DNA of 63,751 bases, the filler included, from Dugesia japonica (taxonomy: Eukaryota), in the NCBI GenBank assembly GCA_001938525.1. It is 5 parts of 5 records of this genome, joined end to end, with 100 filler letters (N's around TTAATTAATTAA, not from the genome) between each part and the next. Parts side by side here need not be neighbours in the genome. Positions count along the whole stretch, not along the records: positions 29,086 to 40,253 come from MQRL01641766.1; 4 more parts are not named here. One strand, 5' to 3'. How positions within the stretch are numbered: the first letter of the stretch is position 1; each line of letters opens with the position of its first letter. Under the pieces are notes generated by a model. The model saw only the letters and a program-made list of their open reading frames with translations, did no database searches and was not told the origin of the DNA. A program made the translations under genes and the position numbers. This document shows, in pieces, positions 12,601 through 59,972 of this stretch.

Positions 12601-14142
12601 TTGATATACGTACAGATCACAAAGCACTCAAATTTTTGAAGTCCACAATTTNATGCATGGTTAAGTGAATTATCTAGTTATGATTTTGATCTGAAATAAC
12701 GGAAGGGTGAAAATCATAACAATCCAGACGGATTATCTAAAATATTATTGAGCTATTGCTCTCAATGTCAAAGTGAACACGTAGAATGAAAAATAGAAAA
12801 GAGCAGAGTAAGATTTTTAAATGCAATTTTGTCAGAAGAATTTAATATTGAAACGTATCGTGCCGTTCAAGATGAGGATTCTGTTTTGGAAGCAATTAAA
12901 GTTTTTATTATGAAACCCTCTTTGATAGTACCAAAGTTAATCCAAGATTCTGTGTATTTTCATAAATTAGATAGGATATTGTTGAAAGATAATTTATTAT
13001 TAATAGAAAGTGAATATAAACAGAAGATAATCATTCCGTATACGCCGTATCCGTCGAGAGGTTTTTGGTACATATGTATAAAGAAATTTATCACTTAGGT
13101 GTTAAGAAAACTATAAATTATATTGATAGTCATTTCTTTTGGATAAACATGGTAACAGATACAAAGTCGATTATAAAAAATTGTGAGTCGTGTATGAGAA
13201 GGAAGACCCTAACATCAAAGACAACCGAATATTTAATACCAAGAAATGTTATGAACTCTATGGATCAAATCGTGATAGGTACTGAGCATATGAAGGAAAG
13301 CAGACGCCGTAATCGTTATATGGTCGTAATAATTGATCAATTTAGCAAGATGATTAGTTTAGGACCAACACAAAAACAAGATGAAAATAATATTCACCGT
13401 GTTATCTTACATCAATGGATTTACAAATTTGGAAAAACGAAATGGATTGTATTAGACAGAGGTAAAGTCTTCGAAAAGAATCAGATCAATGGTTTGGTTG
13501 ATAAATTTAATATTGAGTGGATTTTTACTTCACCATATGATCATAAATTGAACGGTTTAGCAGAGNNAGCAATTATGACGGTCCGAGATATAATTGTCAA
13601 TTTTTCATATGATGGACAAACATGATTGTGCTGGGACGAAATCATACCGAAAATTGAATATTTCATTAACTTAACGATACAAGAGTCAACAGGATTTTCT
13701 ATGATGGAAAAATATTTGGAAGTAAGATAAATATTCATGGCAAAGATCCGTACTTAAAATTGGATCAAGAACAAGTATTGTCAAAGGTACGCGGTAATCT
13801 TGAGATTTCAGCAGAAAGAATGAAAGGTAAAGCTGTTGAGAAGAAGGTGCACAGAGTTTTTGAAGTGGGACAGGAAGTTTTGGTAAAAATAGATCCTCAA
13901 AAGAGACGAAAAGATGGCAATATATATGAAGGTCCTGTAAAGATCGTTGCTTTTCCAACGGATCATAAAGTCGAACTAGAGTATCCAGAGGGAAGGAAAT
14001 ACAGAAGAATTGAATGGCTGAAAGAGTACCACAGTTCTTAAAGAAATGGAGAGTAACAATAAGATAATATTGTTGTAATTGTTTTATAATAAATTTTTGA
14101 AAAGCGTATTATTATTTAATATGTCAAGATGGTATTGTAACT
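9614..14142 (+). mobile_element. Near full-length decayed Ty3/gypsy element (family A), LTRs 9614-9714 and 14052-14142
   Basis: Gag (WLQSIEDF), CCHC knuckle CYCCGDPGHVRNNC at ~10611, degenerate protease, RT (SSLDLGQAYYQ, MPSGFSTAPATFQ, YLDD), RNase H (ELLAI, TDHKAL), integrase (HLGVKKT, IIDQFSK, NGLAE, YEGP). PPT AAAGAAATGGAG lies before the 3' LTR. Many stops and frameshifts. Confidence 0.95.
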
Positions 14143-26549: not shown

Positions 26550-26550
<1 letters not shown>

Positions 26551-28985
26551 GTTACTTGGGTTTGAAAAACTCGTCGTTTTATCAATATCAAAATCCGAAT
26601 TCATAACAATACTTTATTAAAATCAAAACTTTAACCAACATTCTCATAGCTCGTCATTGCGTGTGACCCATATGCAATTACTCTTTCTTGCCTATTGTTG
26701 TCTTTTTAATAAAGTACTATGCCAATCGTATCGAAACTCGCATTCGTGTCCAAAATAAATCCTCTATTTATATCTGGAAAACATAATATTTGAGACATCA
26801 TTAGTGCTTATTTCATTGCATTAAAAACTTCTTCTAATTCATTAGCCCATTCAATTTTCTTGTTACCTGGCCCACTACACAGCTGTTCCAGTAATCTAGC
26901 TTTCTTTGAATAATCTTTAATAAACTTTTTATATATATTGCAAATTTCCAAAAAGCTTCTCATTTTCTTAACGGAGTTTGGTTTACCGAAGTTTTTAATT
27001 GCTTTTATTTTAGTTGGATCTGTTTTGACACCTTCTTTACTGATAACGTGTCCCAAAATTTTGATCTCCTTTTGCATGTTTTGGCATTTTTTCGGATTAA
27101 CTCTAAGACCAGCCTTCATAATTTCTGTTAATACTCTATTGATTATTTCATAGTGTTGCTACTTTGTTTCGGTAAATATGAGAATATCATCTAGATAAAC
27201 CATCGCTCCTTTTATTTTTCCGATTACTTTATTTATCATTTCCTAGAACGTACCTGGTTTAAACATAATCGTATATCCTTTTTTTTCTTGATCCAAACAC
27301 AGATTAATGGCACTTATCTTTCCAATGTTCTCCAATGAGCTGTTATTCGCGCAATGCAATTGTTCCTCGCTCTTCTCTAACATTGTTTTTCTGAGTCTAT
27401 TAAATCCTTCCATGCTCATAACATTTATTCTTGCTCCTGTATCCAACAAACAATCAAACTGTTCACCCTTAACCATCACTGAAATGNTGGGTCTCCCTTG
27501 CATTTTATCATACGAAACTTCTGCATTCTGTTTTTCTTCAATTATTCCTATCACTTCTGCTTTGTTAACTTCCGCATCATTCAAACTTTCTCTTTTTAAG
27601 AATCTGTAGACGTTTTCTCTCAATTTACTAGTCTCATCCCATTTCTCAGCCTCTTGAGGATATTCAAACGGTATCTCGTTTAATGGATGGCTCCGGCAAA
27701 CTCCTCTACAGATGGAGCCCTACCTTTTGGGTATTCTCTTCTTGGATAATCATTTTCTATTATGCTCTCCAAAAATCTCTCTTCATTCTCGTCATCAAAT
27801 TCTTCGCGAATGGCATGAATTGGTTTTGAACTACTCCAATCTTTTGTTTGTTGTCCGATTCTAAAATTGTATCTTCTCTCTTATAGTCTAGGTTTACTTA
27901 TGTTTGAATAACATTTTTCTGCTCAGTGGTCTGGTCTTTTACATCTACCGCATGCAATTTCTGTGCACATCCTTCTAACATGACCAATTTTACGACACCC
28001 AAAACATTTTGGTGGTTTCTTGTCTAGACAATTTCTACTTAAATGCCCTTTTTGTGACAAGTCCGACCTTCCACATGAGAATTTTTGGACACTCTCTTTT
28101 TGTATGCTTATAACTCTGGCTTGTCCAACACTGTGGTTCTGTTCTTTTTGCAACTCTCTCAATATTTTGTATCCTCTCCCCGATACGTTCTCCGAAACGT
28201 TCTCCACGTGTTACACCAGCGTAACTCTTTACTACGTTAATAGGTTCTCTTCTTTTTATTCTTTCAACCAAAGATAACGTTTCTTTTATGTCTTCTACTT
28301 TCTCCAATTTTTACATGATAATCTCTTCTTCTGGTTTTTTACTATTTCCACAAATTATTAGCATTTTTTATAAGAGTTTTTCTTTCGTCAACTCTCCATT
28401 TGCTAAAGATTTATCGACTAAATCTTCCACTTTTTAAAAAACATCTCAAGTTCTTCATCACCACGTTGATAGCTAACAAGATTCTGTAAATCTTTTATTA
28501 TGTCTCTCTTGCTCTCAAAAGCTAATCGCAATCTCTCTCGATATCCATCAGCTTTCTTAAATGTCTTTACATATGCTTCCATTACATCCTCATGAAGCAT
28601 ACATGCTACCCAACGTTCCTGATCTTTCTTAGCAACCATGTTATCTGCCTCAAAGTATATACTTTTGGCAACAACCTTTCTGTGATTGCATCAGTGTTTA
28701 CCGCTGCCACCATGTTAGATGGGTTTGGAAAACTCGTCGTATTATCAATATCAAAATCTGAATTCATAACAATACTTTATTAAAATCAAAACTATAACCA
28801 ATATTAATTGTTAAACAAACAAATTAAAATCATGTGTTTTAGTTGGTGATCTTCTTTTCTAAAATTTAAAAATTAAAACTTTTATTTATTAAAAAATTAA
28901 ACTTTATTACATATAATTTTAATTTATCCTTAAACTAATATTTGTTTATTTAAATTTTTCATCAATAATTTAATCTCTCTTTTAG
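26550..28985 (-). mobile_element. Internally deleted Ty3/gypsy element (family B)
   Basis: 5' LTR 28713-gap, PBS TGGTGGCAGCGGT (tRNA-Leu-type) at 28700-28712, gag with CCHC (CFGCRKIGHVRRMC), protease LLDTGA, RT YLDD and ILGHVISKEGV, RNase H start, then a partial 3' LTR at 26550-26640. Confidence 0.9.
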
Positions 28986-29085
28986 NNNNNNNNNNNNNNN
29001 NNNNNNNNNNNNNNNNNNNNNNNNNNNNNTTAATTAATTAANNNNNNNNNNNNNNNNNNNNNNNNNNNNNNNNNNNNNNNNNNNN

Positions 29086-29150
<65 letters not shown>
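29086..29150. repeat. (TAA)n microsatellite
   Basis: Direct reading. Confidence 0.95.
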
Positions 29151-29153
<3 letters not shown>

Positions 29154-32100
29154 CACTGAGCCGGATCTGTTACCGAAAAATAAAAGGCGGCGACATCATC
29201 GTTTTCATCCAAATGGACCCACGTTTAATTGCCTATCTGGCGGGAAAGGTCGGCTATGAACTGTTTCAATTTTCCGTTGTAACAGTTGTTTGTTTGCGGC
29301 TTCAAGGGCCTTGGTTTGGGCCGCCAGGTCACTCTGTTTTTTCACTATCAAATCCATTTTTTTATCAATTTTTCCCTCTGGGCCAAGTGTTTAAGAAGAG
29401 CCCGGTCTGTTTTACGATTTAAGTGTCGTTCCAGTAACAGACGGCGCAGGACTCGATGACACCGGTGGAGATTATTAGGAAAATTGATACGAGGCACTAA
29501 AGGAAATTAAATTAATAATTAAGCAACTATGCAGCTAAGCTTATGTAAAACATAAGGATAAAAGAAATTGATCAAAATAAAATGATTGAATAATAGATTT
29601 TTTTATAAAAGCTTAAACGGGTTAAGTCCGAGAGGTTTGGGTGCTCTTCTCGATCATCAATGGTTCGAGAGGGATTCTCGCCCGGAGACGTAAAACATCG
29701 TTAACCAGTTTATTTTCTCTGTCATGGCTGGACCGGATAACTTCCGCAAAGGACTCAACCTGTTTCTTCCAGGTTCGATCCTGTAGTGAGAGGCCTCGGT
29801 CTGCTTTTTGAAAGCGATACATTTCTTCTTATAGCGGGTTACCTAACTGTTAGTGGCAGCTATTTCGGCCTCCCATTGACGCTTTGCCAGCCGATACAAA
29901 TCGAGGTCCTCACTGGTTTCTCGTAGTTTTTTATTCGGGGCCTGCGATCTATTCAAGGAGGAATGCACTGAAAAATTATTATTATGAACAATAAGACATA
30001 CAATGCTTAAGAATACATCCCTGAATTAATATATAATATAATTTTCCTTTAACCAATGTATGTAGGGTAAAGTGGATTAACAAAGACGAAATATTTATTT
30101 ATTTTCAGTTCTAAGTACAATAAGGAACGGTTTAGTGTGGATCAGTATTATTGTCGATAATATTGTTGGTGTTTTCGACATCATTAACCCCAGTTGGTTC
30201 TCTCACACCCCAGAGTAAATTGGATATAAAACCCTACACTGCTAGAGGTGGAGCTGGAGGTTGATAATTAAAAGATGTGACATGACTGCGTACGACCCGT
30301 TCTACAGCTGGATTTGTATCCTCTCGCCGAATCTCTGGATGCAAGCCACTTTAGCCTGCACTGGAGGCAAATTATCTCGATCCACCAATATACCGGCATC
30401 TCTATTATGCGGATTAAGGTGGCGTCTAAAAACCACCCGACGAGTTCTGCGATCTATTATCTGTTCCCAAACCGAGTCCATTCCTGGGGAAAACTTTATA
30501 ATAATTATTACCATAACACTAACGACAATTTATATAGGTTTATATGACAAAATTTGTAATAAAACAAGAGATGATACACACACATCTAGTCTAAACGTGA
30601 AGTAAAGGTGTAAGATTCGTTCTACATGGATTAACCTACATGCCCATCGACTTATCGTTCTTCGTCTAAGTCTACTTGTTTAACTAGGGGAAACATTTCT
30701 ACAAAGCAACACAGATTCGTCTTGTCTAGATGCTCAATTCTCCCTTTAGTCACTAGATGAACTATTAACTGTCTTATTCGGACAGTTTGACACAGCTGCT
30801 TTATCCGCCGAAGGGTATGACGCAATTCCGCTGGCATGATCTAAAGAATTAAACCGTCAAGGATAGTTATGAAATTTAGGACTGAACAAACCAAGAACAA
30901 AATTCCATTGTTACTGCACGATATTACTTACATGATAGTTGCCATTAGAGTCAAATTGATGTGCACAGAATAATGATAGACATGATCGCAATAATCCTTA
31001 AAATCGATAATGGTTACAACACTTTTACTACTGATTTGATAATAATAATCTTACACTCGGTTTTGGAACTAACCGTCCTAAACATACAACAATAAAATTT
31101 AAAAAAATAAAGACGGCAGTCTTTGCTAAAACAATGAAGTTAGAAATCAATTGACTGGTGCCATCCCTAATATTAAGCAAGAATTACGAAAATCACATTA
31201 ATAATAATAACATTAATAGTGATAAAAACAGTTTTCTTGAGAGCTTTAATAATAATAACTATAATGATCGTAATAATAGTGGCAATAATAGCACTAATAT
31301 TGGTAATAATCCTCATTATGACGTTAGTAAGGCCAGTTTTAACAACACCAATCACGATAGTATTAATAATAATAACAATAATGAAGACAACAACATTTAT
31401 GATGTTAATAATAATTATATTGGTATGCTCAATTTTAGATTATTTATTGCTCAGATCTATTAAAATCGGTGGATGTGCTGAATTTTGGTATTTTCCCCAC
31501 GTGACACAAAATAATACTTTCTCTTAGAATTTATTAATTTGCCCGAAATTTACAAATTAAATAATCGCGGTAAGTGGTTGCCTAGCAAAAACAACAATTT
31601 ACAATAGTGAGCGTTACACACCAGTCTTAAAGGATAGCCTGTGTGTATGTAGAAAGATTTATCATATTACCATCGATGACTTCACTCAGGTTACTATGAT
31701 GAAGTTATTCATTACAGCAACTTAAGTTGCTATAATGAGTGGCGGATTGATTATTTTTATATGAGATTTGTGGAATTACTCCTACTCACAGCTGATTTAT
31801 AATTTACTACTCATACAATTGTGTAGATCATGCAGTTGAGAATACGATTTTCGCATAAATTTAGTCAACAAAAACAAAACCTCATTTCCTTACTAATAAA
31901 ATATTTTTAAGTTAAAATAAAAATTTGAATTAAAAACTTTTTATTTATTCAACTTTAAATTTACTTTAATTTACTAATACATAACAGAATACTTACTATC
32001 AAATTTTTAGTACGATTTCTGCCCCGGTGGCTAACAATAACAGATGGATGCACAGTGTTCTTTTTTCTTCTTTTAATTGATACAAAAAGTAACAATTTTT

Positions 32101-33275
32101 GCTGTTTTAGTAAGGTTGAAAATCAGTAAAGTTTAATGAATATAATCACTTTGGTGGTACGCGATAACTGAGCAAGTTGATTTCCGTTTGTTGATAACAT
32201 AATAAAATTCTGCCGAGAGTTTTTCTTTTGAGAGTTAACGAATCATTTGTTAGTTTTACGAGAGATTTAGTAGTGTTTTTTGTCAATATTCTGCTAACTT
32301 TATGCTTCTTTATATATGGCTTTTCCTCGCACCCCAACTTTGTTCATAATCATTGGTTATTTTTAACTGGAACTTTTGGCTTCCTTTTGGTTCTAGTGCC
32401 AATTTTCTAAAAAATCTTTTAGAGTTTTGGAACCGCAATTGGTGGTTGTTTTTGGAATGACACATGATAATTGTGTCTTTGTTTTATTTTTATTTTCAGG
32501 TTTCTTATTGGCCCGATCTTGAAAACCCTGCAGCAACCTTCTGGGTGGTGGTAAGTTTTTTTCTGGTAAAGTACCGATAAACCCTTCTGAATCCTTTCGG
32601 AATTTCCTTATTCTGGGCTCCTCGGATTTTTGGGGCCAAGATATTGGGATAAAACCGGATTTGAATTAATTTTCTTTTATTTTAACACTTGATTAATTAA
32701 TATTTTTCTTATAATTAAGTGTTTTATTAGATATTTTCTTTTCTTCTTATTTTAATAATTTATAATTTGTTCTAATTGATTTAAAATAGATGGATGCTGA
32801 TTTTGATTACCCAGTTTATTTTCACTGGTTTTTCGTATTTTGTTCACTCATTAATTGATTTCCAACCTGGTTTTTTTATTCATCTTGTTTTAACCATCTT
32901 TGGTTGATTTTCATCTGTATTTATGATTCTTTTCCTTCTTTTACCATTTTATAATTTGTGGCGGCTTTGCCTTTTCTTTAGCGGTGTGTTTCATCCCAAC
33001 AAATTGCTCTCCGTTTTATTTAAATTCCGTCCCGAAATTTTCCATTATCTATCCCCGTTGCAGAATCCTGTACCCTTATAAAACTGACAGAGCAAGACGC
33101 AATTTAAGGTCATTGCATGTTATTTGTTTAGCACATACATAAAAACTTTTTTACGTTATACATTTAAATACCATATACCTTAATATATTATAGTTCGTTA
33201 CTCTAGTTAGTTTCACAACATCATTTATCGTCTAGTTTTGTAATTACAGTTTATTTATAGCGAGTATAGTTTGTT

Positions 33276-34438
33276 TTAATCGACTTCTTCTCCTATGTTG
33301 TGTTGAAAATTGGTTTGTGGGTTGAAGCCATATTTCCGTAATATTTCGGTTACGATTGATTGGGACAGATTCTTTTTGAACTGAATGTGATCTAACACTG
33401 AAGTCTTGCTGGTTATTCTGCTAGGTGCTGTGGAAACGTGTAAGATACTCTGGGGTTCCTGGATTACCAAGAGTGCAGGTTTTCTGGGTTGAGCCGAGAT
33501 TGTGGAGGGTGTTAGATTTCTGTTTGAGGCTGAGTCTATTACCTTATTTATCCATTCTGGAATTTGGGATTTAGCTGGAGTTAACATGAGGTCCTGGATT
33601 AATAATGGTAAATTGTCTTGGTCGACTGAAGATTGTTGGTTGCCATTCGGGGCGGCAGGATTTAGGGTTGATTTGGGTGAATTGAGGATGATTAAATTCC
33701 TTTGGGGAGATGGGATTGGTAGTACTAATGGATGAGAGATAGGTTGGCAAACTGCGTGAGACTGTTGCAGCTCTTTGATGGTTGAAAACTGGTCGACTAA
33801 GTGTTGTTGTTTTTGCCTTATCTCTTCTTCTTTTTCACGGTAGAGGTTTCGCAGCTCGTCGATTTATTGTTCGAGTGCTTCTATATATTGCTCCTGAAAT
33901 TTGTTCTTTTGCTGTTGTTCTTCAATTATACTTTCAAATTCTAACGAAAGCTTATCTATACCTGCTCGAACACCTTATCTGTTAGCCAGGCTTGTCAGGA
34001 GTTGATTTTCGGTGGCTAGATGATTTTTTTCAAACTGGGTGTTAAACAGTTCCATTCTCAGGATTTTTGTATTTTCTTGTTCGATGATTAATTGGGTCTC
34101 GAGAGCTTTTCTTTTGGGTTCGACTTCATCATATTTGTTTTTCTAATTTCGGACTTGTTTAATGGCATTTATCTCGGCTCTATTGGCATCGATATTACTT
34201 TTAAAATATTTTTTATGGGACTTGCATGACCTCTTTTTGTTTCTAACATCTGGTTAGCTCTCTCTGCCTGACCTTCTAACTCACTATTATACTTTTGCAA
34301 TTGTAAGTTGGATAGGGCATCTATTTTGGATTCTAATTTCCATTTAAGGACTTCAGGTACGGTTGTGAGGGTTCGAGTTTGGATTTGCAATAATTGAATT
34401 TCGTTACGTAGGTGATTTATCAGATTTTTGTTATTCAT
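33276..34438 (-). pseudogene. Accessory ORF D: long coiled-coil followed by a Pro/Ser/Thr-rich region (~385 aa; several stops and a frameshift)
   Basis: The 34169-34438 ORF joins via EPKRKALETQLIIEQ...EEQQQKNKFQEQYIEALEQ...LPIPSPQ to the 33276-33587 ORF. Confidence 0.6.
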
Positions 34439-34531
34439 TTCTAAATTAGAGAGAGTGAATAATTTATTATAAAATTTTGATAATTATATGTATATATATA
34501 TTATACCGTATTTAGATTTTGAATTTATTTT

Positions 34532-35574
34532 TTATTGAAATGCTATCCCCAATACCCTACGTTCAATTATCTTCCGGCACATAGGGCATTCGTTTAATTT
34601 TATCGCACAATTATAGCATGTTTTGAAATGTCCGCATGGAAGGAAAATAATTTCTATAGTTTTCGCCAAGCATATGACACAATCGTTATCCATTAATGCC
34701 CATTTTTGTTCAAATTTTACTTGTTGACCTTCTTTTCGGAGCGACTGTTGGTATAATTCGTATAGCGTGATTAATTTAGTCCCTTTCTCTGTGACCGTTT
34801 GTTTTATTAGTTGATCGATATTTATCTGCTTTAACTTTAAAATATTGGTCAGCCTGTTGGTCTGTTATTCAATTGCAATTTCTATTCTGTTAAGAGACAT
34901 ATTCCACTTGATTCTACAAGTGGTTGCTAGTAATTCTTCTTCATCGATTTTATTTAATCTTGAAAATTTTGTTGGTGGTTGAATATCTTCTTTGGTAATT
35001 TCTCTACTCCTTTTGCGAGTTTACCAATCTATTAAGGTAGTTTAGCTCTCTCGTCTGATCAGAGATTAGATCGCGTGGTTTGGCTACTAACTCCATTGTA
35101 TACTTCTGTTTTTCTGTAGTAATTTCCAGCATTTGTCGATTTTCCATTATTTGTTGTCGACAAATAAAGGTTTCTGCATATAAATTCTCGTTTTGAAGTT
35201 GTAGGATTTTATTTTTAAATTCTAGCTCGCACCAATCTAGGGTTTTCATAGTTATTAGGGTTTGCAATAGTTGATTCCGACTGTGCTCCAGTTCTTCTAA
35301 TCGTTGTGGAGTCCATTGAGTTTGGATTTTAATGCTATTACATAATTCTTTCATTTCCTCATTATGATTTCTCCAGATTTCATTTATCGTTACTTGTGAG
35401 GGTATCATATTTGTAGGATTATTTACTAGTGACAAATTTCTGGTAGAATGGTTGACTCGTTGTTAGATCAGTTTGTGAGTCCATGTTTTCATTTTTGGTC
35501 GTATTCTGGTATTTTCCTTCAGTTTCTATTTCTTTTTGATTTATTTCTGAATGTGAAACATCGATTAACTTCAT
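34532..35574 (-). pseudogene. Accessory ORF C: coiled-coil plus C-terminal C3HC4 RING finger (IAP/MDM2-like type), putative E3 ligase
   Basis: Minus translation ending at TAA 34532: DNDCVICLAKTIEIIFLPCGHFKTCYNCAIKLNECPMCRKIIERRVLGIAFQ*. It links to coiled-coil ORF 35004-35435 through one frameshift and one stop; the 35574 ATG needs a further frameshift. Confidence 0.85.
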
Positions 35575-35648
35575 TGCTGTTTTTATCTATATACATATTC
35601 ATTAAGTAAGTTTACAATTTACACTATTTACACAGATTTGAGATTAGT

Positions 35649-37268
35649 TTAGCAAGTCATTACCCCTGGTGCCTGATAGGGTTTAGGCACATATGTGGGT
35701 AATTCGTTCGATAGTATCCCCAGTGGTAGTTCTTCGTAATTTGGTGGTGCTAATGGTAGGTGTCGTCTTTTCTCATTTCGACTATGTTTCTTCCGTTTCG
35801 GTTTTGCTTGTTTACAGAATTGCACATATAGTGTGATTAATACTAGTGCCGCTATTGATACACTTCCTATTATTATGTGGTCTGTTCCATTTTGGGTTGG
35901 TTTGGTGGTAGTGATTGGTTCCTTTATTATAGTCGGCCCACCCCATATCATCCGGTGATCTTACTTTGGCTGGTAATTCCTCAGGTTTTTCATTAAATTG
36001 TTTAAGAAGTTTGCTCTATTTTTTTTCTTTTCCTCGGTGGCCAACGTAGTCCGTGTTTTTGTTTTCGTTGTTATTGTGGTTTTTTCTGTGGTAGTTCTAG
36101 TACTTATTTTAACCTTTGGTTTAGTAATATTCAGCTTTATTCTTAAATCCCGATTAATAACTGCAGTGAATTCTATCTCCCACATTTCTGGTCCAAAACT
36201 ACCCATGTTTGTTCCTTGTTCCTGTAATGCATTTTCTTTGAATCCTGATATTTTTTCATTATAAGCCCATCCCCATTGAGCGAATGAATAATACTTGTTC
36301 TTTTTTTTCGTTAATTCGTAATTGATATGTGTTGTTCATTTTTCTGATCGGTACGGGCCTTGGACTTTCCTGCCAACGATAACCACATTATCCAAACATG
36401 TATTCGGTTATCGAGCGGAATCCTTTTCCCCAGTTAATGGCTATACTTTTTTGTTCCCTAACACCCGTTTCTTATCTGTCGATTCCTTAACTATATTTTT
36501 CAAAAATTGGATATGGAATAGGTATTCATTCTGTGGGCAGATTTTCACGTTCTTGTCTCCTTTCCGTTCCCATGTCCATTCCCTTTGTCGCGGGTTTTCT
36601 ATTACGTAGTAGATTAGGAGATTACGTGCGTGATGCATCTTAAAATTTATTTGGTGCTCATAATCGCCATGATTTCTTTTACGTTTCCCTTGAAATTCTT
36701 GTGCCGAATACATCCACCAATTCTTTATGTTGAAATGCATTGCCTGACCTTCTACTGGTGCTTCTCCTTTATACCATAAACTTGCTGTCCACCCATACCA
36801 TGATAATAATATTTGATGTTCCTTAGTTCCTTCAATGGTAGGTTTTAGCAATATCGACTCATGTTCCTATCCTTCGAAAACTTTTATTTCACGTCTTCGT
36901 CCATCTGTGCTCATTGTTCGAATGGTGGTTTTGCGGTCGTTGAAATAAACCCTATGTTCCGTTAATATTAACTCATTGGTCCAACAATCTTGACATTTAA
37001 TTCCCTTCATCACTATTACTAAAATAGTGATTATAACTTGTCTATTAGATATTCTATTCTGGTTTTTCCCTTTTCCCATATTTCTGATGAGTTTCATGGT
37101 TAACCAAATTAATACGCCATGGTCCCAATTTGTGTTGATTACTGCCCATAACAACAGAGATATTTTGACTATTATTTCTACTGTAATCACGTTCTTGTTT
37201 TCTTGTGGTAACCCGCTTTCTGATTTTCTTGGTTCTGTTTGATCCACCCTATCCCGCAATAATATCAT
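35649..37268 (-). pseudogene. Accessory ORF B: Env-like type I membrane glycoprotein
   Basis: ORFs 36867-37268/36441-36851 and 35961-36206/35649-35951 are each in frame across a single stop. Features: signal-peptide-like VIITILVIVMKGIKC|QD, Thr-rich stalk, NIT and NGT sequons, TM IIIGSVSIAALVLITLYV, basic stop-transfer, tail with PPNY and LPTY. Confidence 0.65.
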
Positions 37269-37300
37269 TTTCCTTTTTCCCGCCCTTCCCGGCGTTATTC

Positions 37301-38713
37301 TTACCCTTCCTGAGGATTTGTGATAATCCTTGGTTTTGATTTCCTACAAGCCAATTTATCTGATTTTATGTCTAGTAACGTCATATTTTTTAGCTTGTGA
37401 TTACTTTGAATAGCTGGCTCGACCATGCCCCACGGCAATTGGATCTTCAATGGTTCATATACTCTAATCCAGTTCCATTGTACTAACGTATGGTGAAACA
37501 TTTGAATGGATTTTAATAATTCTTTGCTGTAAATATTTGTGCATGGCATGCACAATTTTTTTATGATAGATTGGCGAATGAGGACTTAAATTGGTATTTT
37601 AATTCGGTATACATCACAGTCTTTCCTGAACCAATTTTCTGGTTTGAATAATCATGCTCTTTGATCGTAAATGGCCTTTAGTGTGTTCTTTAATATTATT
37701 TGTGTTTGTCTGATACATTGTAAACAATTCTCCTCCAATTGCTGTGCTGACAGCGGACAGGTTAGATGGTTAAGGTGATTACAACTTTCTTCGGATCTTA
37801 GTGTCCGGCTCCCCTGGCAGGTGATTGTATAGCATGTAGTAGCATCCATAGCTTCAGGTTCCAGGGGTCGACGCATTTGATTATCTGAACCAAAAGATAC
37901 AGTTTTAACTTCTTGTGCTACAATGGCTGATTTATCATTAATCATAGATAATGTTGTTGGAGTTTGAGAAGGACGACTAATACTTGGTGTCTTAATTATT
38001 TTAGGCATAACCAATTTGTTCGAATCATTCGATTCTTTGGTGACTAATGCCATATTTCCGCTATCTTTCATCTTTCTTTCTTTCCTTCATTTGTCGGCAT
38101 ACTTTAATACGCCCTCCTTCAATAACCGCGTTATTTTTTGCAACTCTGTTTCTATCCTTTCATCTTCTTTTGGTTGTATGTCTGTTTTCAGTTCTGAACT
38201 TACATCTTTCTCCACTAGTTCCGCTTCCCCACCTTCTTCAGACTCAGCGTCCTCGCTGAGACTTCTTTTCCTTAATACCAATTCTAAACCACTCCACGTT
38301 GGAGGTTCTACTGGTTGAGACCATAATATCAACCAGTCCCATACTATAATTATCGTATGGAAATTTTCAAAAGCTCGAGTGAGAGTTTTGTTTTAAATAC
38401 TTGCACAACATTCGAATAGAGTGTGTAAGTCATCGGGTGTCAGTTGCCCGTGAATTGTCAGCTTGTCATGCATTTCCTTACAACGTCTTCTACGGAGTTC
38501 GTCTTGTTGTAACAACCCAAGTCTGCGACTAGCGATTTCCCGCAATGTTGATTTCAAAATTGATTGTAATTTCCGTATGCATGCAAGGCAACTTGCCTCA
38601 ATTAGAGTTGGTGAGATTGGGCATGTCACCTGAGAGAAGTGCGCACAACAGTTCTCGGGTACCGGTATCTGCGTTTCTCGTGGAATTATAGGATAGATTG
38701 TCATGGTACCCAA
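37301..38713 (-). pseudogene. Accessory ORF A: ~470-aa protein with two copies of a Cys/His-rich domain
   Basis: Track ORFs 38393-38713, 38087-38332, 37652-38071 and 37301-37555 share one frame, separated only by point stops. Confidence 0.7.
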
Positions 38714-38729
38714 TGCTTTAACTCGATGG

Positions 38730-40253
38730 CTTAACTGATGATTTTCCGAGTGTCATCATGGCTTGTTGTGATCGTAATGTATAACTATGCGATACATTTA
38801 ACTCCAGATTCTCTGTTTTACGTGGCCTACCTGGGCCTCTGTGTTCCGTCGTAGTTGGCGCAATTTCCTCCATCATTGCAGCCTTCTTACATAAGTTGGC
38901 GTGGTATATTTTGGGTTTTTCGAAGAGATTTCCTTTCTTTCAAACTTTGAGATTGGTTTTGGTTACCTCAATCACCTCAAATACTTCGTATGGTCCTTGC
39001 CATGGCCTTTTTAATTTTGATGTAGTGCCAACAAAAATGTCTGGTAAATTGATCAATACCATGTCGCCTTTTTTAAATGAATGTTGTATTGCCGTTTTAT
39101 CGTGCCAATTCTTATAGCTTTCCTGGTAAAACCCTACATTCTCCTTGGCTTGTTTCCATATTTTCTGCATAGTCTCTTTGAAATTTTCAGCGAAATCTGT
39201 TTCGTCTTGGTATTGTGTTATAGGTAGCTGAAATTCTAAGTCAATTGGCATGTTGCATTCTCTGCCGTACATTAATCCAAATGGAGTGTATTTTGTTTCT
39301 GGATGTACACTCATACGGTATACAAATAAACACAGCTGGATATGCTTATCCCAATAATTTTGTTCTTTTTGAGCATAACTGGATAGCATATTGATCAAGG
39401 TTTTATTAAATCGTTCCGTTAGTCCGTCTATTTGTGGATGATAAGGTGATGTTCGTTGTTGATGTATTTTGAGGAAGCTTGATATTTCTGCCAGTATGTA
39501 GCTCATAAAATTTTTTCCTTGATCGGTCAATATCTTTTTAGGTGTGCCATATCTGCTGAAAAATTTTCGTACCAAGATATCCGCCATGATGGTTGCTTTT
39601 TGATTTTTTATAGAGAATGCCTCCGGGAATTTTGACAAGTAATCTATGATTGTTAGTATGTAGATGTTTCGACTCAGCGTCGGTGGTAACGGTCCAACTA
39701 CGTCCATAGCTATTATTTCCATAGGTGTGGCAGAGACGCTATCGGTTTCTATAGTGCCTTCATTATTTTGCCCGTTGCTCTTCTGGCAGCACATATTTGA
39801 CATTTGGCGATTCATTCCTTTACTGATTCTGCCATATGTGGCCAGTAATATTTCTGTCTTAATTTTGATTCGGTCTTCTTATGAGACATGTGTCCTCTTA
39901 ATACTCCATTGTGATATTGCTCGAGTAATTTATCGCGTCTTGCTTTAGAAATGACTAATACAGTATTTTCTCCGTCCTGAGCAGTCAGCCATCTTTTAGT
40001 GACTGCATAACGCCCTCCGTTTTTCTTTAAGTGTTCTTTCATCTTGGGTTTGCATTCTAACTTCTCTAAATTGTAATTTTCCATATATTTTGTGATGATC
40101 TTGATCTCTTCATCATCAGCCTGTGCCTGTTTCAGCCCATCAAAATTTCGATCCTCGGATAAAATGAAGTATACCATATCTACTTTTTTCTCTAATAGTT
40201 CACGTAATGTGAATATTTCCGTATCTTCCGGGGTACTTTCTGTGGCTTCTGGT
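38730..40253 (-). pseudogene. Gypsy pol C-terminus: connection domain, HHCC, DDE integrase, GPY/F, AT-hook
   Basis: KQAQADD, YHNGVLRGH...YYWPHM, AMDVVGPLP, IIDYLSKF, LTDQGKNF, SPYHPQIDGLTER, WQGPY, then past a stop HANLCK...RGPGRPRK...YTLRS. Confidence 0.95.
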
Positions 40254-40353
40254 NNNNNNNNNNNNNNNNNNNNNNNNNNNNNNNNNNNNNNNNNNNNTTA
40301 ATTAATTAANNNNNNNNNNNNNNNNNNNNNNNNNNNNNNNNNNNNNNNNNNNN

Positions 40354-40403
<50 letters not shown>

Positions 40404-40435
40404 GTTATTGTTATTGTTATTATTATCATTATTAT
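40354..40435. repeat. (ATT)n microsatellite
   Basis: Direct reading. Confidence 0.9.
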
Positions 40436-40619
40436 TTCTATGGCACAATCATAGACAGTTGCAACTGTGTCTAAATAAATAAAATTAAAAAAATTAAATT
40501 CATATTTCAAGTAAGGTTTAGATGTACTATTGTTTATCTTGTTTAAATCATCTATTTAAAGGATTAATTGACGACAATTTTAAAACGTAATGCTTTTTGT
40601 AATTAATTACCTAACTACT

Positions 40620-42340
40620 TTTCTTAATTCATGTTAGATGAATGAAAAACGTATAATGGAATAAGAAAATAACACTCAAACGAGAAACAAAACCTGTCAT
40701 TCAGTAGTTGCCCAATCATCTAGAGTTTCACATTTTATTTTATCGACACAATAGGATTTTTTCAGAACCTACTTGTATTATATTCAAAATAAATGTATGT
40801 AAAATTTGGATATTTACTAGTTGATAAAATTTTAGAAATTTGGAATAAGACTGCTATACCAGCAATTTCGTTCAAAAGTGTCTCAGAAAGTTTGAGGAGA
40901 GAGTCATCAAAGGCCAAAGTTTATAAATGAATTTATATATTATCTGAACAAAGTTAATCATTAAAAAAGAAATTAAAATAAGTAGTGATTGTTATGTATT
41001 GAAAAAGGAATAATGAAAGTATAAGAATTTTGGTTAAATCAGAAAACAGATAGATACATCAGTATGAGCCAGGTGAACGAAAAATAAAGAACCACATTTC
41101 AAAACCAAACGATTTAAAAAGCATTCATTGCCCGTAATAAAGGAACTAATAAAACATTACATACTCTTTCTATACTATGAAATGAAGTCAGAAATACTAA
41201 TTACAATGATTCTTCCGATACCATTTCATTATATTATACTTAACATCAGTATTATTACAGAAACAATTCCAGAACCATTGTAAAATTATGGAAGTTACAA
41301 TGATTAACACTTGGTTTAATAATTATGAGCAATTATAATTTTCATTTTTTTATGAATATATTGTATTTAAATGTAGTCTGATTTTGAAAGTAACTTAACT
41401 GACTACCACGCCGAAAATGTTAATGTAGTGACACGCCAACAACAACGAAAATTAATTTTAGAAGCCTTGCATAAGAACACTCAGGTGCTTATCAACTTTA
41501 ATATAAGAAATTATGATGACAAAGATGCTTTAGAAGCTAGCGCATGGCTTAAAGAAATCGAAGAATGTTTCATTTTGTATGATTTAATTTTGATGGGAAT
41601 AAACGCTTCTGTTCAAGAGTCGAAAAAATTGTCATTATTTGAGATTGTTGTTGGAAAGTGAATAAATTTGCATGTAAAGACAGAAACCGTTTCTGAAAAC
41701 AAAACAATTAGACAGTTAGACAAAATTGAAATGGAGCAGCTAATAAAATGACAAATTTTGAAAATGAAAAGCGTGAACAGAGAATTTTCTAAGTGGGAGA
41801 ATGGGTGTTAGTTTGTGTAGAACTACAAAAGAAAGAAGAGTGATTTCCAATATGATGGACTATATCAGGTAATAAATTTCATATCAGATCGGGAAGTAGA
41901 AATCAAATTTCGTGACGGTTCAAAGTACAGAATAAAATGGTTAAAGAAGTGAAAAGCATTTTTAAGAAGGAGAGTTACAATGATTAACACTTTGTTTAAA
42001 TATTATTAGAAATTGTTGTAATTTTGTTGTAATATATTTTATTTAAATGAAGACTGATTTTGAAAAAACTTAACGATGGATAAAACATTTTCTTAAAACT
42101 TAAGCACCACGTTGGTATAAAATTAAAAGTAATTGAAAAGGTAATGCTCTAGATAGAAATTTTCAGGATACTCTTATTAAAATTAATGACTTGGAGCATA
42201 ATAAGGCTGCGATTGCTATGAAGGTCATAGAAAGAAACTTATACCTTGCTCATCCAGAAAATGTATCTTCTTAGACAATAAATTTGTGAAAATAGGAGTT
42301 TCTGATACAATAAAAGCAGAAAAAGAAAAGATTAATCATG
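40620..42340 (+). mobile_element. Highly decayed hAT-like (hATm/hATx-type) transposase interrupted by the 41293 mini-element
   Basis: EIWNKTAIPAIS near 40837 and, after the insertion, APRWYKIK...VIERNLYLAHPEN. Confidence 0.45.
41293..42075 (+). mobile_element. 783-bp TRIM-like internally deleted gypsy element with TSD ATGGA
   Basis: LTRs 41293-41400 and 41973-42075 (both start AGTTACAATGATTAACAC), PPT AAGAAGGAG, gag N-terminus fused to integrase C-terminus. ATGGA at 41288-41292 and 42076-42080. Confidence 0.9.
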
Positions 42341-42444: not shown

Positions 42445-44510
42445 AGAAATGGAGGAAGCTCTAAATTATTGAATATAATATATAAATAAGAATAAAGAAG
42501 AAGATTGAAAGATTGGTAGAAATGTTAATGGCTCATAAATGGAACAAAGAGNANTTGACAAAAAAGCTAATAATGAATAGTTGCAACGACAGAAAGATTA
42601 AACATAAAATCAAATCAGGAAAAATAGAAAACGTAGACGATGTATTTAAAGCAATAAAAGAGTGGGAAGACATAAAAGACGAAGTAAAAACTGAAGAAAT
42701 AAATTTAGTTCGTAACTACAGAGATGCAGTTCGCCAAAGTCCAGAACAAACAAATTTCAACAAGATTCGAAGTGTAGGAATGCAACAGAACAGAAACAGC
42801 GAAAGACGAGAAATAACGTGTTGAACCTGTAACATAATAGGTATTGTAAGCAGAAATTTTCAAGAAAAAAAATTGTTATGCTTTGTGAATCTGAACAACA
42901 CTTAAGAAGAGACTTTACCAAAGTTAGTTTTTCAAGACGCAACAAAAAAGGTCACCATACAGAGGACTGTTACAAAAATATGAACAGAAATTTATGTTAT
43001 CAGAATAAAAGTGAACAGACCAGAAATATATTCGGAAATAACAACCAAAAATATTATTCGAACAACTAAACAAGAAGGAATGAAAGCCAGGTTAATTTAA
43101 TTGAGGAAAATGGAAAAGATTGTGTATATAGAGAAGACAAAGGCCACTATTGTAATGACGGGTCAAATAATTATCAAGATGAATACCCAAATGGCCAAGC
43201 TCTGACCGAAGTTGAGATTGTTGGAGCGTTGAATTAAGTATCCCAAAAAATCCCAGTATTGTTAATTATATTTTAAGTAGTATAAATAATTATATAAATA
43301 AAAGAAACGAAGATAAGCGAGTAGGTGAGTACAATGATGTAAAAGAAAAAGTTTACAAGTTTGTAAAGAAATAATTGATTAGAGCCCAGTCATAGATGAT
43401 CAATGATATAAATGGAGAAGATGACAGTGAAATTCTGACGATAGATGAGATAAAGAGACAAGAGATAAATTATGACAAGATGCAAGGTAGACCAAGTATA
43501 ATAGTTGAAATACAAGGCGTAAAAATTGATTGCTTGTTAGACACTGGAGCAAGAGTTAATATGATGAGTTTGAGAATTTTGGAAAGATTGGGAAAAGTCA
43601 ATATATTAAAAAGCGAAGACGATTTAAAATGTGCCAATAATAGTCCGCTTGATTTAGTAGGTACGATAAAGGTAGAAGTGGAATTCGAGAATAAAAGCGA
43701 ACCAGTTAAATTATTTGTCATTAAACAGATACATTCAGATTTTATAGAAGGAAATGAATTACAGAAGCAGTTTGGATNNNAACTGCTGAGAGAGACTAAA
43801 TGTGAGGACAATGAAATGTATCTTTGTAATATAGAAGCAAAGTATGGACGCAGTACATCGGATGAGAAGAGAGTACAGAGAGCAATAAAAATATTGATTA
43901 ACAAGACAAACGAGAATTTAGAAAATGTTAGAAGGATTTATAAAGTAATATTCATGGCAAACAACTGGGATATCAGCAGAACAATAATGGCAGAACATTA
44001 TATAATTACAAATGGATAACAAATATATACGAAACCATGGAGACAACTAATGTATTTAGATAATAAGATTGATGAAGCTATCAAGACTTTGTTTATAAGA
44101 CTTTGGCATTATTAGAAAGTGTAATTCGCCATGGAACACCCCATTAATATGTGTTTGGAAAAAAGAAAGAAAAGGCGTTAGATTATGTCTAGATTTTAGA
44201 AAACTGAATGCAATCACAGAAAGACAGATATTTCCGATGTCCAATGTAGAGGAAACACTAGATAATTTGAGTGGTGCAAGATATTTTAGTAATATTAATT
44301 TGGGTAATGCATATTATCAAGTTCCGTTATATAGAGAATTACAAGAGAAAACAGCATTCTCTACGAAAAATGAACAGTATTGTTTAACAAGTATGCCTTT
44401 TGGTATAGCTGCAGCAACTGGAACGTTTCAAGAATTAATGACAAAAGTATTAGGAAGATTGAGAGGAACAATGGTATACATGGATGATATATTGATATTT
44501 TCAGAAAATT
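42445..44510 (+). mobile_element. Gypsy gag-pol fragment related to family B
   Basis: YDKMQGRPSI...DCLLDTGARVN, SPWNTPL, RLCLDFRKLN, YYQVPL, MPFG, YMDDILIFS. Confidence 0.9.
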
Positions 44511-45049
44511 TAAATATTTGTTGCCATTTAACAAACTTATTTAACCAAATACTTATATTAGATTTTAGACTCATTTTAACTTCCAAATTATCGTTTGAAA
44601 TCCAGTTACTTAGTTTACCTTTACAAATTTTTCGAAAATAACTCGTGGCTATACACAACAATTAGTATAAATANNNNNNNNNNNNNNNNNNNNNNNNNNN
44701 NNNNNNNNNNNNNNNNNNNNNNNNNNNNNNNNNNNNNNNNNNNNNNNNNNNNNNNNNNNNNNNNNNNNNNNNNNNNNNNNNNNNNNNNNNNNNNNAAATA
44801 TTCTTTTTGTATTTTTATTAAAAATTTAGTTAGTAAATAACATTTTAATTTAGAAAAAAAAGTTAAACGTAATCGAAGTAATATTAAACCGCCACTATTG
44901 CTTTATACCAATCAAAACAGAATACTTGATGCTAAACAAAAAAAGGATATTTTTAGCAGAAAAAAGTCCCTTAGTTCGGCATCCGAAAATTCTCAAAATG
45001 CTGTGTAAGATTTCATTATTTTCTTATTTTTACCAATTACTCATCATCA

Positions 45050-55975: not shown

Positions 55976-58839
55976 CATATTCATATTGAATTATCTCGAA
56001 ATTCGGTGGGAGATTAAATTCAAAAAATATAAAAACTTCCGATGTTATGTCGCAAATTATATTCGAAATTGTAGTATAATGCACTCGTTTATTAAAATAA
56101 ATGAAATTGTTGATTTTGATGACCACAATATTGTCAATTTGGAACCTACAATGATCTCAAAAATTCCCTCAGACTCTTACTATAGCTAAGGTTGTCAAAA
56201 AAGATTCTTGAAGTTTCAAAAACAACAGTTATCTGCCGAAATTAATAACCTAAATGGAATTATTTCAAATGATTCTATAGTGATGATGAATAATTTCTTC
56301 AAACTTATTAAAAAATAATACAAGGGATTTAAACTTCAATTAGATATTATCTCTAAACTAGGTAAAGCTGTCAATAATTATAAAGTAGATAGTGATGAGG
56401 AAACTACTAATGTAAATAAAGCTAAGAGATTTGTTTACTGGACACTCAATCTTTAAAACTTCCAATAAGTCAAAGAAAATACTTTCCATTGAAAGCAGTA
56501 AACATTTGCAAAGAATTATTGATTACCTTAAAGATTCTTTAGAGACAACTATCAATGTTGACAAATCAGGTAATATTAAGAACAATACCACAGATAAAAA
56601 TTTATTAACTAGTGGAATTTTAAATTTAAATTGTGAAATTAAAGCTGAACCAAGAATTATTGACGATAAATTTGCTACAATGAGTGAAATTAAAAACACT
56701 AAAATCTGTAAAATATGCTCAAATTCTGAAAATACTCTTGACATTGAGATAAACAATTGCTCAGTTGTCTTATGTTGTCTTTGCGTAAATAATTTCACTG
56801 ATAAACTCAATACGGAAATAGACGCTGAATCCGTTGTGTCAGTTAGTAAAGTTACAAATTCTATATCAAAGAACTTACGGTCAGCCATTCGAAAGAAATT
56901 ACTGCTCACTAATAAATGACGGGTATTAAAACAATTTAAAAATGTTAACTTTGTTGTCTCTGTTATTCCAAATGATATTTGTTTGTGTTTATTGGTTTAT
57001 TCATTAACTTTAAAACTTAGCTACGTGTTTAATTTTAATGACTGGACAATAACTCATCGTCTATGGGTTATAGAGGAAAATATTACAAACTATCAGAACA
57101 ATATTGGTTTTACTAGAAATCACGGCATTCTTCACATTACTCATGCTACTAATAAACCTTTGTATATTGCTGCTGCGTTCATTCAGCAAGTTAAGAGCAT
57201 GATTACAAGTCGTGAATTCTAAATTTTTACTAATCGTAAAATCACTTGAAAACTTATTCACAAACATGTGTAACGAGACATCAGTAAAACTCCACAATAT
57301 CAATTGTAAAATTAAAAATGATACTATTAATAAATTTTCTAATAATCTCCAACTGTCAAAACATTTTGTTTGGCTATATAGAACTATGTGTAACGCTATT
57401 TTAGATGGTTGCACTGAACATATGCTTGATCATTTAAATTTCGATAACTTTGTAATGTAAAAATAATTTTAGCAATCTTTAGTCGTCCAAAATTTCATTG
57501 TCTGCTATTCATTAATGATTATGAAATATCTGAGCACTACTTACTAAATCCAACGACTCTTATTGAAAAGAAGAGTCATTTGGAAATTATTAAAAATTTA
57601 CTTCTGAAAATTAATGAGATCGCCTGTCGTGAGAATTACTTTTCAACAACTGTTCACATGATGTGCGAGGTTCTGGTTTGTTCTCAAAAGTTCTGATGTT
57701 GTTTTATTAATCATTTTGCATTTGCCCATTCACTTAGCAATCTAAATATCAAAGAAATAGGTACCATACTTAATGGGCTATGTCATTCAAGTGACAAAAC
57801 TAATCAAGTTGAAATATTTGAAAGCTCAATGCCTCATATACATGCAGAAAGGTTTAATAAAGAAAATCGCATAGAAAATGCTAACAAAATACTTGTCGAG
57901 ATCGAAAATTTGGATACTGACTCAATTATTGAGATAATAAAAATCAATACTTAAAGTCTAATGAAGCTCAAACCTTTCCTTGGTAAAACAAAACTCAAAT
58001 TAAATATCGATAAATATAAACTTAGATCAGATCTTAATAAGAAATTGAAAAAAACAGTCTACTCCATTCTTTCAGATGGAGATTCAACAAATGCGAGACC
58101 AACAATAGACGATATTGAAAAATATTTTCATCATGATGAACCAGATAAATTCAAGTGGAATCTTAACGAAAGATGTGTCAGAAAATCTCTATCTACATTA
58201 ACACTCGATCAAATTCATCCTTGCGATATTCTTAATGAATTCAAAAAAGTAAAAAATACCGCTCTAGGGCTCGACAATATCATCAATAAAGACATTAAAT
58301 ATCTCGGTCTTGAAGGAAAATTACTTTGCTACCTGTACAATAAAATTATATCTATATATAAAAAATATATCATACCAAATACTTGGAAATCATTCAAAAC
58401 TATTCTAATTCCAAAGTCTGATAAGAAGAATTTGTATATGATTTCATTCTGGCGGCCAATTGCTTTACTGTCAGTAATATACAAAATATTTGCAGCAATT
58501 CTTAATAGTCGACTGAATTTTTGGATCAAAGAAAATAATATTCTTCATCAATTTCAAAAAGATGACTCTGAACATGAAGGATGTGCTGAACACAACTCAA
58601 TCTTAACAGCGGATCTAGAATACTCAAAATACAATAAATCCTGTCAAACTGGTATAACTTGGCCGGATATAAAAGACGCTTTTGGAAGCATTCCTCACGA
58701 ATACATGTGATCATTGATCCGTTGTGTTGGAATAGATGAGGCCTTCATTAATATTGTAAGAAACCTATACACAAACTCTAGCTCAATATATCGCTGTGGC
58801 AACATATTAACTCAAAGTATTCCAATAAAAAAAGGTGTC

Positions 58840-59291
58840 TGTGAGGTGTTTTGAAAAGTAGGCTGAAATTTTGTGTGATTGGTGATCTTATTTTTAAAAT
58901 CTTTTGTTTAAAAGAGTGATTTAAATTATTGATGAAAAATTTAAATAAACAAATATTTGGTTTAAGGATAAATTAACATTATTGAATTAAATTACTTTTA
59001 GTAAATAAAAATTTTCAATTTTTAAATGAAAATTAAGTAAATAAATAAACTATTTTTTAAAGGGAAATAAATAAAATTTTAAAAATGTTTTTAATTTAAT
59101 TATATAAAATTACTTTTAATAAATAAAAAGTTTCAATTTTTAATTTTGGAAAAAAATCAACAATTAAAACACGGAATTTTAATTTGTTTGATTAACAAAA
59201 ATTATTGGTTAGTTTTGATTTGAATAAAGCATTGTAATGAATTCAAATTTTGATATTGATGATATGATGAGTTTTCCAAAGTCAACTAACA
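58840..59291 (+). mobile_element. Family B solo LTR (452 bp) with TSD GTGTC inserted in the RT
   Basis: TG...CA termini, GTGTC at 58835-58839 and 59292-59296. The reverse complement matches 28713-28985. Confidence 0.92.
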
Positions 59292-59972
59292 GTGTCAAAC
59301 CGTGTTGTCTACTTTCAATGACACTTAAAATAAATCCCGTGTAAGAAGCTATAAGATACACACCAAGTGTTCCTAGATTTATGCTTGGTGATTCTGGAAT
59401 ACAAGTTTTGGCATATGCTGATGATATTTCACTGATAGCAAACAACGTTGAAGATCTGCAAAAGTTATTAAACCAAGCAACATTTATTTCAATAAAAATT
59501 AGATTGGAATTTTAGCCAGATAAATGTGCTTATCTCCAATTAGCATGAGTGAATAACATAAATGAAATCTCAATTTTTAAAAGGAAAGCAAAAAATCTTA
59601 CAACGAATGAACTTTATCAATACCTTAGTGTTCTAATTGGAGAGTCTACTGATCAAACACCTTATCAAACGTTTTCAATTTTTGTAAAAGATGCTAAAAA
59701 GTTGGCAAATTCTGATTTATAAGGTTTGCAAAAAGTGTTTCTTCATTCTATATTGATATTTCCGTTCCGCACTAGGGAAATTAAAACAAAAGCTTTAACT
59801 GCATTTAATTGTAACCCTCATTACAATTATAATATTACTAGTAAATTAAAGGATCAACTAAGAAAAATGATAAACCTTCCAAGACATTCAGAAATTGTTT
59901 ACTTTTATTGTTCAACAGAAAATAGTGGAGCGAACTTTGTTAGTCTATTGGATGAATAGCTATTAATAAGAA

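Follow-up and report, generated by a model that had tools for sequence, protein, structure and literature searches.

A broken gene for a putative IAP-derived RING ligase lacking BIR domains in a multi-copy Ty3/gypsy element of Dugesia japonica

The minus-strand interval 35574-34532 of a Dugesia japonica window (the whole stretch of DNA analysed, 63,751 nt with filler, from assembly GCA_001938525.1) was interpreted, with a probability of roughly 0.6, as a broken accessory gene of a multi-copy Ty3/gypsy element. The gene would combine an IAP-derived helix and RING without a BIR domain, and its product was likely an element-encoded E3 ubiquitin ligase. The evidence comprises the RING itself and the state of its gene, the element around it and the copies of that element in sequencing runs, and the likeness of the last part of the gene to BIR-bearing IAP-type proteins.

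The RING domain and its broken gene

A C3HC4 RING was located on the minus strand at 34681-34574 with all eight zinc ligands kept. The first Cys codon starts at 34681 and the last Cys (34579-34577) is followed by an Arg (34576-34574), a 13-residue tail and a stop at 34534-34532. In the 110-residue frame 34864-34535 the ligands are C62, C65, C77, H79, C83, C86, C93 and C96, with R97 next, corresponding to the spacing C-x2-C-x11-C-x1-H-x3-C-x2-C-x6-C-x2-C; across the six frames of the window, a C3HC4 pattern with such spacing occurred only once. The domain matched Pfam zf-C3HC4_3 with 55.3 bits (cut-off 27; E = 5.5e-15), bearing out the first-pass annotation, which had reported a complete RING hidden from the ORF track. 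The RING is missing from that track because the first in-frame ATG of the open stretch 34864-34535 comes at 34693, leaving an ATG-started ORF of 53 aa.

Twenty PDB sequences matched the RING at E up to 0.001. The top ten were cIAP1, cIAP2, XIAP and BIRC7, and MDM2 was the last of the 20 (E = 1e-3). A predicted model of the RING frame (mean pLDDT 57; RING blocks 63-82) gave the cIAP1 RING as its top Foldseek match. The RING of MDM2 and MDM4 has a C2H2C4 ligand set, which differs from the C3HC4 ligands found here. The original description of the domain as IAP/MDM2-like thus holds for IAP, but the likeness to MDM2 is weak. In an alignment of 32 RING proteins, nine Cys/His/Pro columns were invariant and the Arg after the last Cys was nearly so; hydrophobic residues are present at sites that we take to be E2 contacts. 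The tail is longer than that of cIAP or XIAP and is typical of a diverged group of three proteins, P0152, P0162 and P0164. Seven aligned relatives and the window protein have in common the tail I-x-x-R-[VI] and an extension past the usual IAP end. Word-indexed protein searches with the RING piece gave 63 and 1 candidates, none at E = 0.001, and the Atlas matches for this piece were generic RING clusters only.

The gene interval was found to consist of three overlapping open pieces in three frames (35574-35422, 35462-35007 and 35020-34535, final stops not counted), all on the minus strand, plus one more stop at 34867-34865. Piece A (35419-35574) is an ATG-started open frame of 51 aa, likely the gene start; it shares 41 nt with piece B, which is read in another frame. 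Piece B (35004-35462) is an open frame of 152 aa with predicted long helices and overlaps piece C by 14 nt, again in another frame. Piece C (34532-35020) is the RING frame, 162 codons with one internal stop, and includes a helical pre-RING segment (34700-34924) that resembles the region before the RING in a diverged group of BIR-bearing IAPs and holds the in-frame stop. One ancestral gene is the simplest reading of the three pieces, and it is reasonably likely that A, B and C once encoded a single protein of about 345 aa with a long helix in front of the RING. The copy at 35574-34532 itself is most likely dead; its broken state (three frames, one internal stop) had been passed over in the first-pass annotation. 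An alternative genetic code, prompted by the in-frame stops, was rejected, as TAA, TAG and TGA all interrupt the frames and frame changes occur as well.

For piece B, a single-sequence model gave long helices (residues 52-126, mean pLDDT 70.7). No Pfam family was matched by this piece, and Atlas gave no usable match for it (recognition 1479). Of the long coiled coil that had been said to precede the RING, the predicted long helix (35462-35007) stands, but its frame is not that of the RING, its heptad periodicity was not above shuffles (65/300 reached the same level), and it would be fused to the RING only in the reconstructed gene.

The absence of a BIR domain, also claimed previously, was confirmed. 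A BIR profile was built from 41 BIR cores in 28 of the 161 proteins retrieved; it gave no positive score in any of the six frames of the window, compared with 86.6 and 56.8 bits for the controls P0152 and P0162. Pfam searches on 14 ORF pieces returned no BIR, and no further IAP exon was found in the 63.7 kb window. In passages of PMC7768685, an IAP is defined for working purposes by at least one BIR; under that definition the RING protein, having none, is not an IAP. Judged by sequence, it would still work in the manner of an IAP-type RING ligase. The pre-RING position is the place of the UBA domain in IAPs. Pfam returned no UBA match for the pre-RING segment at E up to 10, and its model showed three helices at low confidence (pLDDT about 30-50); the presence of a UBA domain there is no more than a lead.

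The surrounding Ty3/gypsy element and its copies

An integrase lies 4 kb upstream of the RING on the same strand, within a compact run of accessory ORFs. The Ty3/gypsy integrase region (38751-40250, minus strand) comprises an H2C2 domain (Pfam E = 1.2e-11) and an rve core (E = 1.7e-14) and is broken by a frame change and stops. Among 999 candidates, 208 polyprotein relatives of the integrase were found at E up to 1e-30, mostly 35-44% identical. In P0105, an RT-RH-IN protein, the RNase H-integrase part runs collinear with this region, and nothing downstream of 38751 matched pol, which together indicate the usual Ty3/gypsy order (RT-RH-IN). The Gmr1-type order, with integrase before RT, had been raised by the presence of PF02023, which we take to be SCAN, in many top integrase matches; it was rejected, there being no RT after the integrase. 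A gap and TTA microsatellite at 40254-40353 cut off the 5' part of the element, placing gag, protease and RT outside view. No LTR pair was found, in that no long direct repeat of 29000-41000 occurred elsewhere in the window.

Four accessory ORFs follow pol, all on the minus strand. The ORF next to the integrase (37652-38752) is broken, has no family match and carries a duplicated Cys/His module (C-x-H-x4-C...C-x2-C; 38% identity over 66 aa, E = 1e-14, no Pfam family), possibly an unrecognised zinc-binding domain. The following ORF (35649-37343), broken by five in-frame stops, appears to encode a membrane protein and stands in the env position. Its hydrophobicity peaks around 37193 and 35879; it also has a stalk rich in Thr, a hydrophobic segment at the C-terminal end and, in its tail, a PPNY motif, presumably of the PPxY type, a WW-domain/late-domain motif. 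Its unbroken pieces gave no Pfam match, F-type and gB-type env included, and it is a candidate env by position. The RING gene comes next, separated from its neighbouring ORFs by gaps of 74 and 92 nt. The downstream ORF (33276-34439) is broken, with two frames and three internal stops; it has a coiled-coil-like N-terminal half, with a heptad signal reached by 5/300 shuffles, and a Pro/Ser-rich tail. Beyond it lies a repeated non-coding 3' region (31500-33275, minus strand), likely UTR/LTR, with one copy in the window. The ORFs of the run 33276-40250 contain one to five internal stops each and have an A-rich coding strand in common (A 0.36-0.43, T 0.22-0.23).

Elsewhere in the window, other decayed gypsy pol regions were seen at 11170-14035 (+), 26637-27335 (-) and 44060-44608 (+). 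A 93-nt repeat at 26550 and 28713 starts with TGTTA and may represent the short-LTR ends of an element at 26.6-28.7 kb. By eye, a histone H3-like frame at 60002-60373 (+) has several substitutions and a lost N-terminus, and is likely a pseudogene. Non-LTR retrotransposon-like fragments, also recognized by eye, lie at 57955-61482 (+), with an RT-like part at 57955-58710 and CCHC plus endonuclease-like parts at 60964-61482.

Four of 24 listed sequencing runs, namely two DNA runs from two studies and two poly(A) runs, were compared with 31500-40250 at 80% likeness. The DNA runs yielded 8424 and 7866 contigs, and all 30 bins of the stretch were covered. Sorted by identity (99% or more, 95-99%, 90-95% and under 90%), the 8424 contigs fell into groups of 558, 1348, 3227 and 3291, and the 7866 contigs into groups of 506, 1267, 2940 and 3153. 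The summed depth in the two DNA runs was at least 490 and 353 over the accessory ORFs and 5047 and 3360 in the RING bin, while single listed contigs had a depth of about 5-19; summed depth is not a copy number, and only the presence of many diverged copies was taken from it. At sites 35074 and 35243 in piece B, 24-43 distinct contigs differed from the window. Only 2-3% of contigs ran on into unlike sequence. The stretch 31500-40250, RING included, is a diverged multi-copy family. Together with the same-strand ORF run behind a gypsy integrase, this upholds the initial placement of the RING inside a retroelement. Two outcomes had been named as counting against that placement, a single-copy host exon and a RING not shared by other copies of the element; a diverged multi-copy stretch was found instead.

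No listed contig spans the distance from integrase to RING, or 31500-40250 as a whole, and long-range linkage in other copies is therefore not proven. One contig per DNA run joins 37671 to 39385, which is weak evidence as its short side is 24 nt. The integrase depth was 10-50 times that of most accessory bins, a figure that may be inflated because a threshold of 80% likeness would also collect other gypsy families.

About a quarter of each poly(A) run was covered, giving 96 and 12 reads, none of them at least 95% alike to the window. Of these reads, 89-100% fitted only in part, and the RING bin reached depths of about 0.3 and 0. The window copy was thus not seen expressed in two poly(A) samples.

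Some further features were noted around the 3' side of the RING gene. One contig per DNA run joins 35632 back to 32667, as would a tandem duplication of the 3-kb RING block in one copy. A DNA depth peak was present at 32376-32667, with partial RNA-read matches of about 40 nt at 32471-32514; this is perhaps a short motif common to more abundant, transcribed elements, and perhaps part of an LTR. A poly(T) loose end at 32734 (X13) was considered as a transcript end and rejected, since it rests on about 35 AT-rich matching letters.

Origin of the RING and of the segment before it

A full protein search returned 5860 proteins at E up to 0.001, none of them at 1e-30, and the comparisons made here rest on 150 listed of the 5860 matches. 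Relative to its nearest known relatives among the matches listed, the RING was about 30-39% identical over the alignment. When the listed relatives were placed back on the element, 25 alignments extended past the RING core. The best extended match among the 150 listed was P0152 (137 aligned residues, 31% identity, E = 2e-19, reaching 34918), followed by P0164 and P0162. Both P0152 and P0162 carry a BIR (E = 6e-20 and 6.5e-6, respectively). The first-pass suggestion of a captured gene agrees with these best extended matches being BIR-bearing IAP-type proteins. The diverged IAP group formed by P0152, P0162 and P0164 has, besides one BIR, a degenerate second Cys/His region that is BIR-like, as well as the extended RING tail. 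Visual inspection had also hinted at an N-terminal MATH/TRAF domain in P0152, a possible link to Burro elements, but Pfam gave no such match up to E = 10 and the idea was dropped.

When the 82 residues ahead of the RING were compared on their own, without the RING, with 139 segments, P0152 and P0162 came out on top (0/200 shuffles each), and these matches take in residues outside the search query. The next scores were those of an RNF34-like protein (1/200 shuffles) and P0164 (3/200); P0169 could not be distinguished from shuffles (26/200), and P0153 scored below them. The likeness of the upstream segment is nevertheless modest, as a seven-relative profile gave only 3.6 bits on it, a level reached by 52/500 shuffles, and 8.0 bits (2/200 shuffles) without composition correction. 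The upstream-segment test is only partly independent because the close set was picked by a search containing part of the segment. A quick tree of 139 rows was made from 138 of the 150 listed matches and the window, the 12 matches without a RING pattern being left out. It grouped the seven close rows to the same side of a branch whose SH-aLRT is only 79, the search being unfinished and unlabelled rows not being excluded. The likeness to the BIR-bearing IAP group continues for about 80 residues ahead of the RING, which suggests that the element took up an IAP gene's 3' part. Based on these alignments, the helical segment and RING, i.e. the last ~130 codons, quite probably descend from an IAP gene, an origin that is likely rather than proven.

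A metagenome scan identified 19 loci, and in all 19 the tblastn matches were confined to the RING region of the element, with none to its other ORFs. In one of these loci (L001; 3-2437, plus strand), an intronless RING ORF is followed by an RNase_T/DEDD exonuclease ORF (E = 3e-10) and a 326-aa ORF in compact arrangement on the same strand. The L001 RING is 84-86% identical to the cluster of P0153, a BIR-less protein of 142 aa, and none of the three cluster members has an in-frame BIR. The exonuclease belongs to a cluster of 11 members. Neither the exonuclease ORF nor the helical ORF of L001 has a counterpart in the window. DEDDy exonucleases occur as additional ORFs in rotifer LTR retrotransposons (PMC5408684). 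The locus has the appearance of an accessory region from a different mobile element; being 2.9 kb long with no pol, it is only suggestive as a mobile context. Viral-contig scans with the integrase and the RING alignment, which detect close relatives only, returned no relative, leaving the earlier proposal of a large-DNA-virus donor unsupported; a third scan, with the L001 exonuclease, was also negative.

Proposed role, alternative explanations and known retroelements

We propose that the 3' part of an IAP-type gene was acquired by a gypsy element, that its BIR domains were lost, and that the fragment came to lie behind the integrase and was kept by the element as an accessory E3 ligase. The RINGs of cIAP and XIAP bind E2~ubiquitin and dimerise. 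The RING described here would bind E2~ubiquitin and probably dimerise as they do, and E3 activity by this route is probable. The helical part would replace the BIRs as a dimerisation or substrate-recruiting arm, and a host protein that limits the element would be sent for ubiquitination. That this target would be a cell-death regulator or silencing factor is a guess, and the counter-defence role suggested in the first-pass annotation is likewise hypothetical. As there is no BIR, caspase binding in the manner of IAPs is not expected.

One alternative reading divides the interval into two genes, a helical ORF (35574-35004) and a short helical-plus-RING gene starting from an ATG at 34900 and resembling P0153. 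The ligase interpretation would stay and the helix fusion would fall. This ATG shares the frame of the RING and coincides roughly with the start of P0153 in the alignments, and the three members of the P0153 cluster likewise have no in-frame BIR. However, the likeness to P0152, P0162 and P0164 starts about eight codons further upstream, and beyond that point the RING frame stays open for 32 more codons, up to 35020, where it overlaps the helical frame; two genes are therefore somewhat unlikely. The fragment might instead be a passenger, an IAP 3' end acquired by template switching and spread without use, as the broken and apparently unexpressed window copy would allow. Against this, all RING ligands were kept despite only about 30-39% identity to the nearest relatives, which requires long conservation of the RING. 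The gene also has its own stop and a 74/92-nt spacing inside the ORF array, and a single stop interrupts the 162 codons of its RING frame, a number about as low as in the neighbouring ORFs; a passenger is accordingly improbable. RING-RING pairing occurs between IAPs, and an IAP-type RING without a BIR might act as an antagonist: by pairing with the RINGs of host IAPs it would block these proteins or drive their turnover, promoting cell death or changes in immune signalling. Nothing in the analysis points to host IAP binding, and the tail exceeds that of cIAP/XIAP in length, as is typical of the diverged group, so this role is judged quite improbable.

Two further explanations place the RING outside the gypsy element. 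The accessory block could be a separate mobile unit or an endogenous viral fragment, nested by an unrelated gypsy integrase. The excess of integrase depth over most accessory bins and the lack of a contig spanning both would fit, but the same depth would include other gypsy families at 80% likeness. Moreover, no bin was uncovered, few contigs (2-3%) ran on into unlike sequence, strand and composition are continuous, and the weak 37671-39385 join was seen in each DNA run; we regard a separate unit as very unlikely. An exon of a single-copy host RING/IAP gene would explain why the best matches are cellular-type IAP RINGs. It is contradicted by the many diverged copies in two DNA runs, with a summed depth of hundreds to thousands over the RING bins against about 5-19 per listed contig, and by the internal stop, the absence of RNA matches at 95% or more and the absence of other IAP exons in the 63.7 kb, and has next to no probability left. 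The preferred reading is that of a broken accessory ligase gene belonging to the Ty3/gypsy element.

Capture of an IAP by a gypsy element is already known from Burro1, and the difference here is a BIR-less form encoded by a separate gene after pol. Burro1/GYPSM1 are described in passages of PMC6431247 as giant gypsy-like LTR retrotransposons of planarians, with a BIR among the motifs of a 4,873-aa ORF1 and env between gag and pol. The Burro B-IAP (Lee et al. 2026, as cited in PMC13465017) combines BIR and RING and is reported to protect stem cells from caspase-mediated apoptosis; in Dugesia japonica, copies that have decayed through stops and frameshifts have been described. The present element resembles Burro1/GYPSM1 as a Ty3/gypsy element of an AT-rich genome with an apparently IAP-derived RING, further accessory ORFs and decayed copies. 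Unlike the published layout, it has no BIR, and its RING gene and membrane ORF are separate and lie downstream of the integrase. The Burro arrangement, with BIR cargo and env between gag and pol in one ORF1, was not seen in the window, where the 5' part is lost at the gap.

With cIAP1/BIRC2, cIAP2/BIRC3, XIAP/BIRC4 and BIRC7, as well as P0152, P0162 and P0164, the predicted protein has in common the RING spacing, ligands and fold and the C-terminal position of the RING, and with P0152 and P0162 also the helical pre-RING segment. It differs from cellular RING-type IAPs in having no BIR, a tail longer than that of cIAP/XIAP and, instead, a long helical N-terminal part. Among other retroelements, the rotifer LTR retrotransposons Juno and Vesta carry extra ORF3 cargo (DEDDy exonuclease, GDSL esterase, coiled-coil and TM ORFs), as described in passages of PMC5408684. 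The element here is similar in having extra ORFs downstream of pol, of coiled-coil and transmembrane types, which in Juno and Vesta are exchanged between retroelements, but it has four accessory ORFs after pol, and RING or ubiquitin does not appear anywhere in PMC5408684. For env-bearing Ty3/gypsy elements of the errantivirus type, PMC13524379 gives a gag-env-pol order for Platyhelminthes, and RING occurs nowhere in that paper. Such elements resemble the present one in a membrane-protein ORF after pol and differ in that the unbroken pieces of its membrane ORF have no F-type or gB-type env match. RING cargo was absent from the portions of PMC13524379, PMC8532177 and PMC11410931 covered. A BIR-less form of retroelement IAP cargo was not found in the literature searches made, and the primary Burro figures or supplements may already show one.

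More broadly, animal LTR retroelements might have in common an exchangeable cargo of IAP-derived helix plus RING, accompanied by a BIR in Burro and, in L001, by a neighbouring DEDD exonuclease, whereas here a long helical arm would take the place of the BIRs. In this lineage an apoptosis inhibitor would thereby have become a retrotransposon-encoded E3 ligase directed at the degradation of a silencing or cell-death factor of the host, a counterpart of viral RING ligases. This generalization is speculative and, as it stands, unlikely. The broken state of the window copy limits its direct use. As judged from sequence, the RING gene would offer a specific candidate for an anti-host E3 encoded by a transposon. 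A second architecture that keeps only the ligase end suggests that ubiquitin-ligase activity, and not caspase binding, can be what a retroelement keeps.
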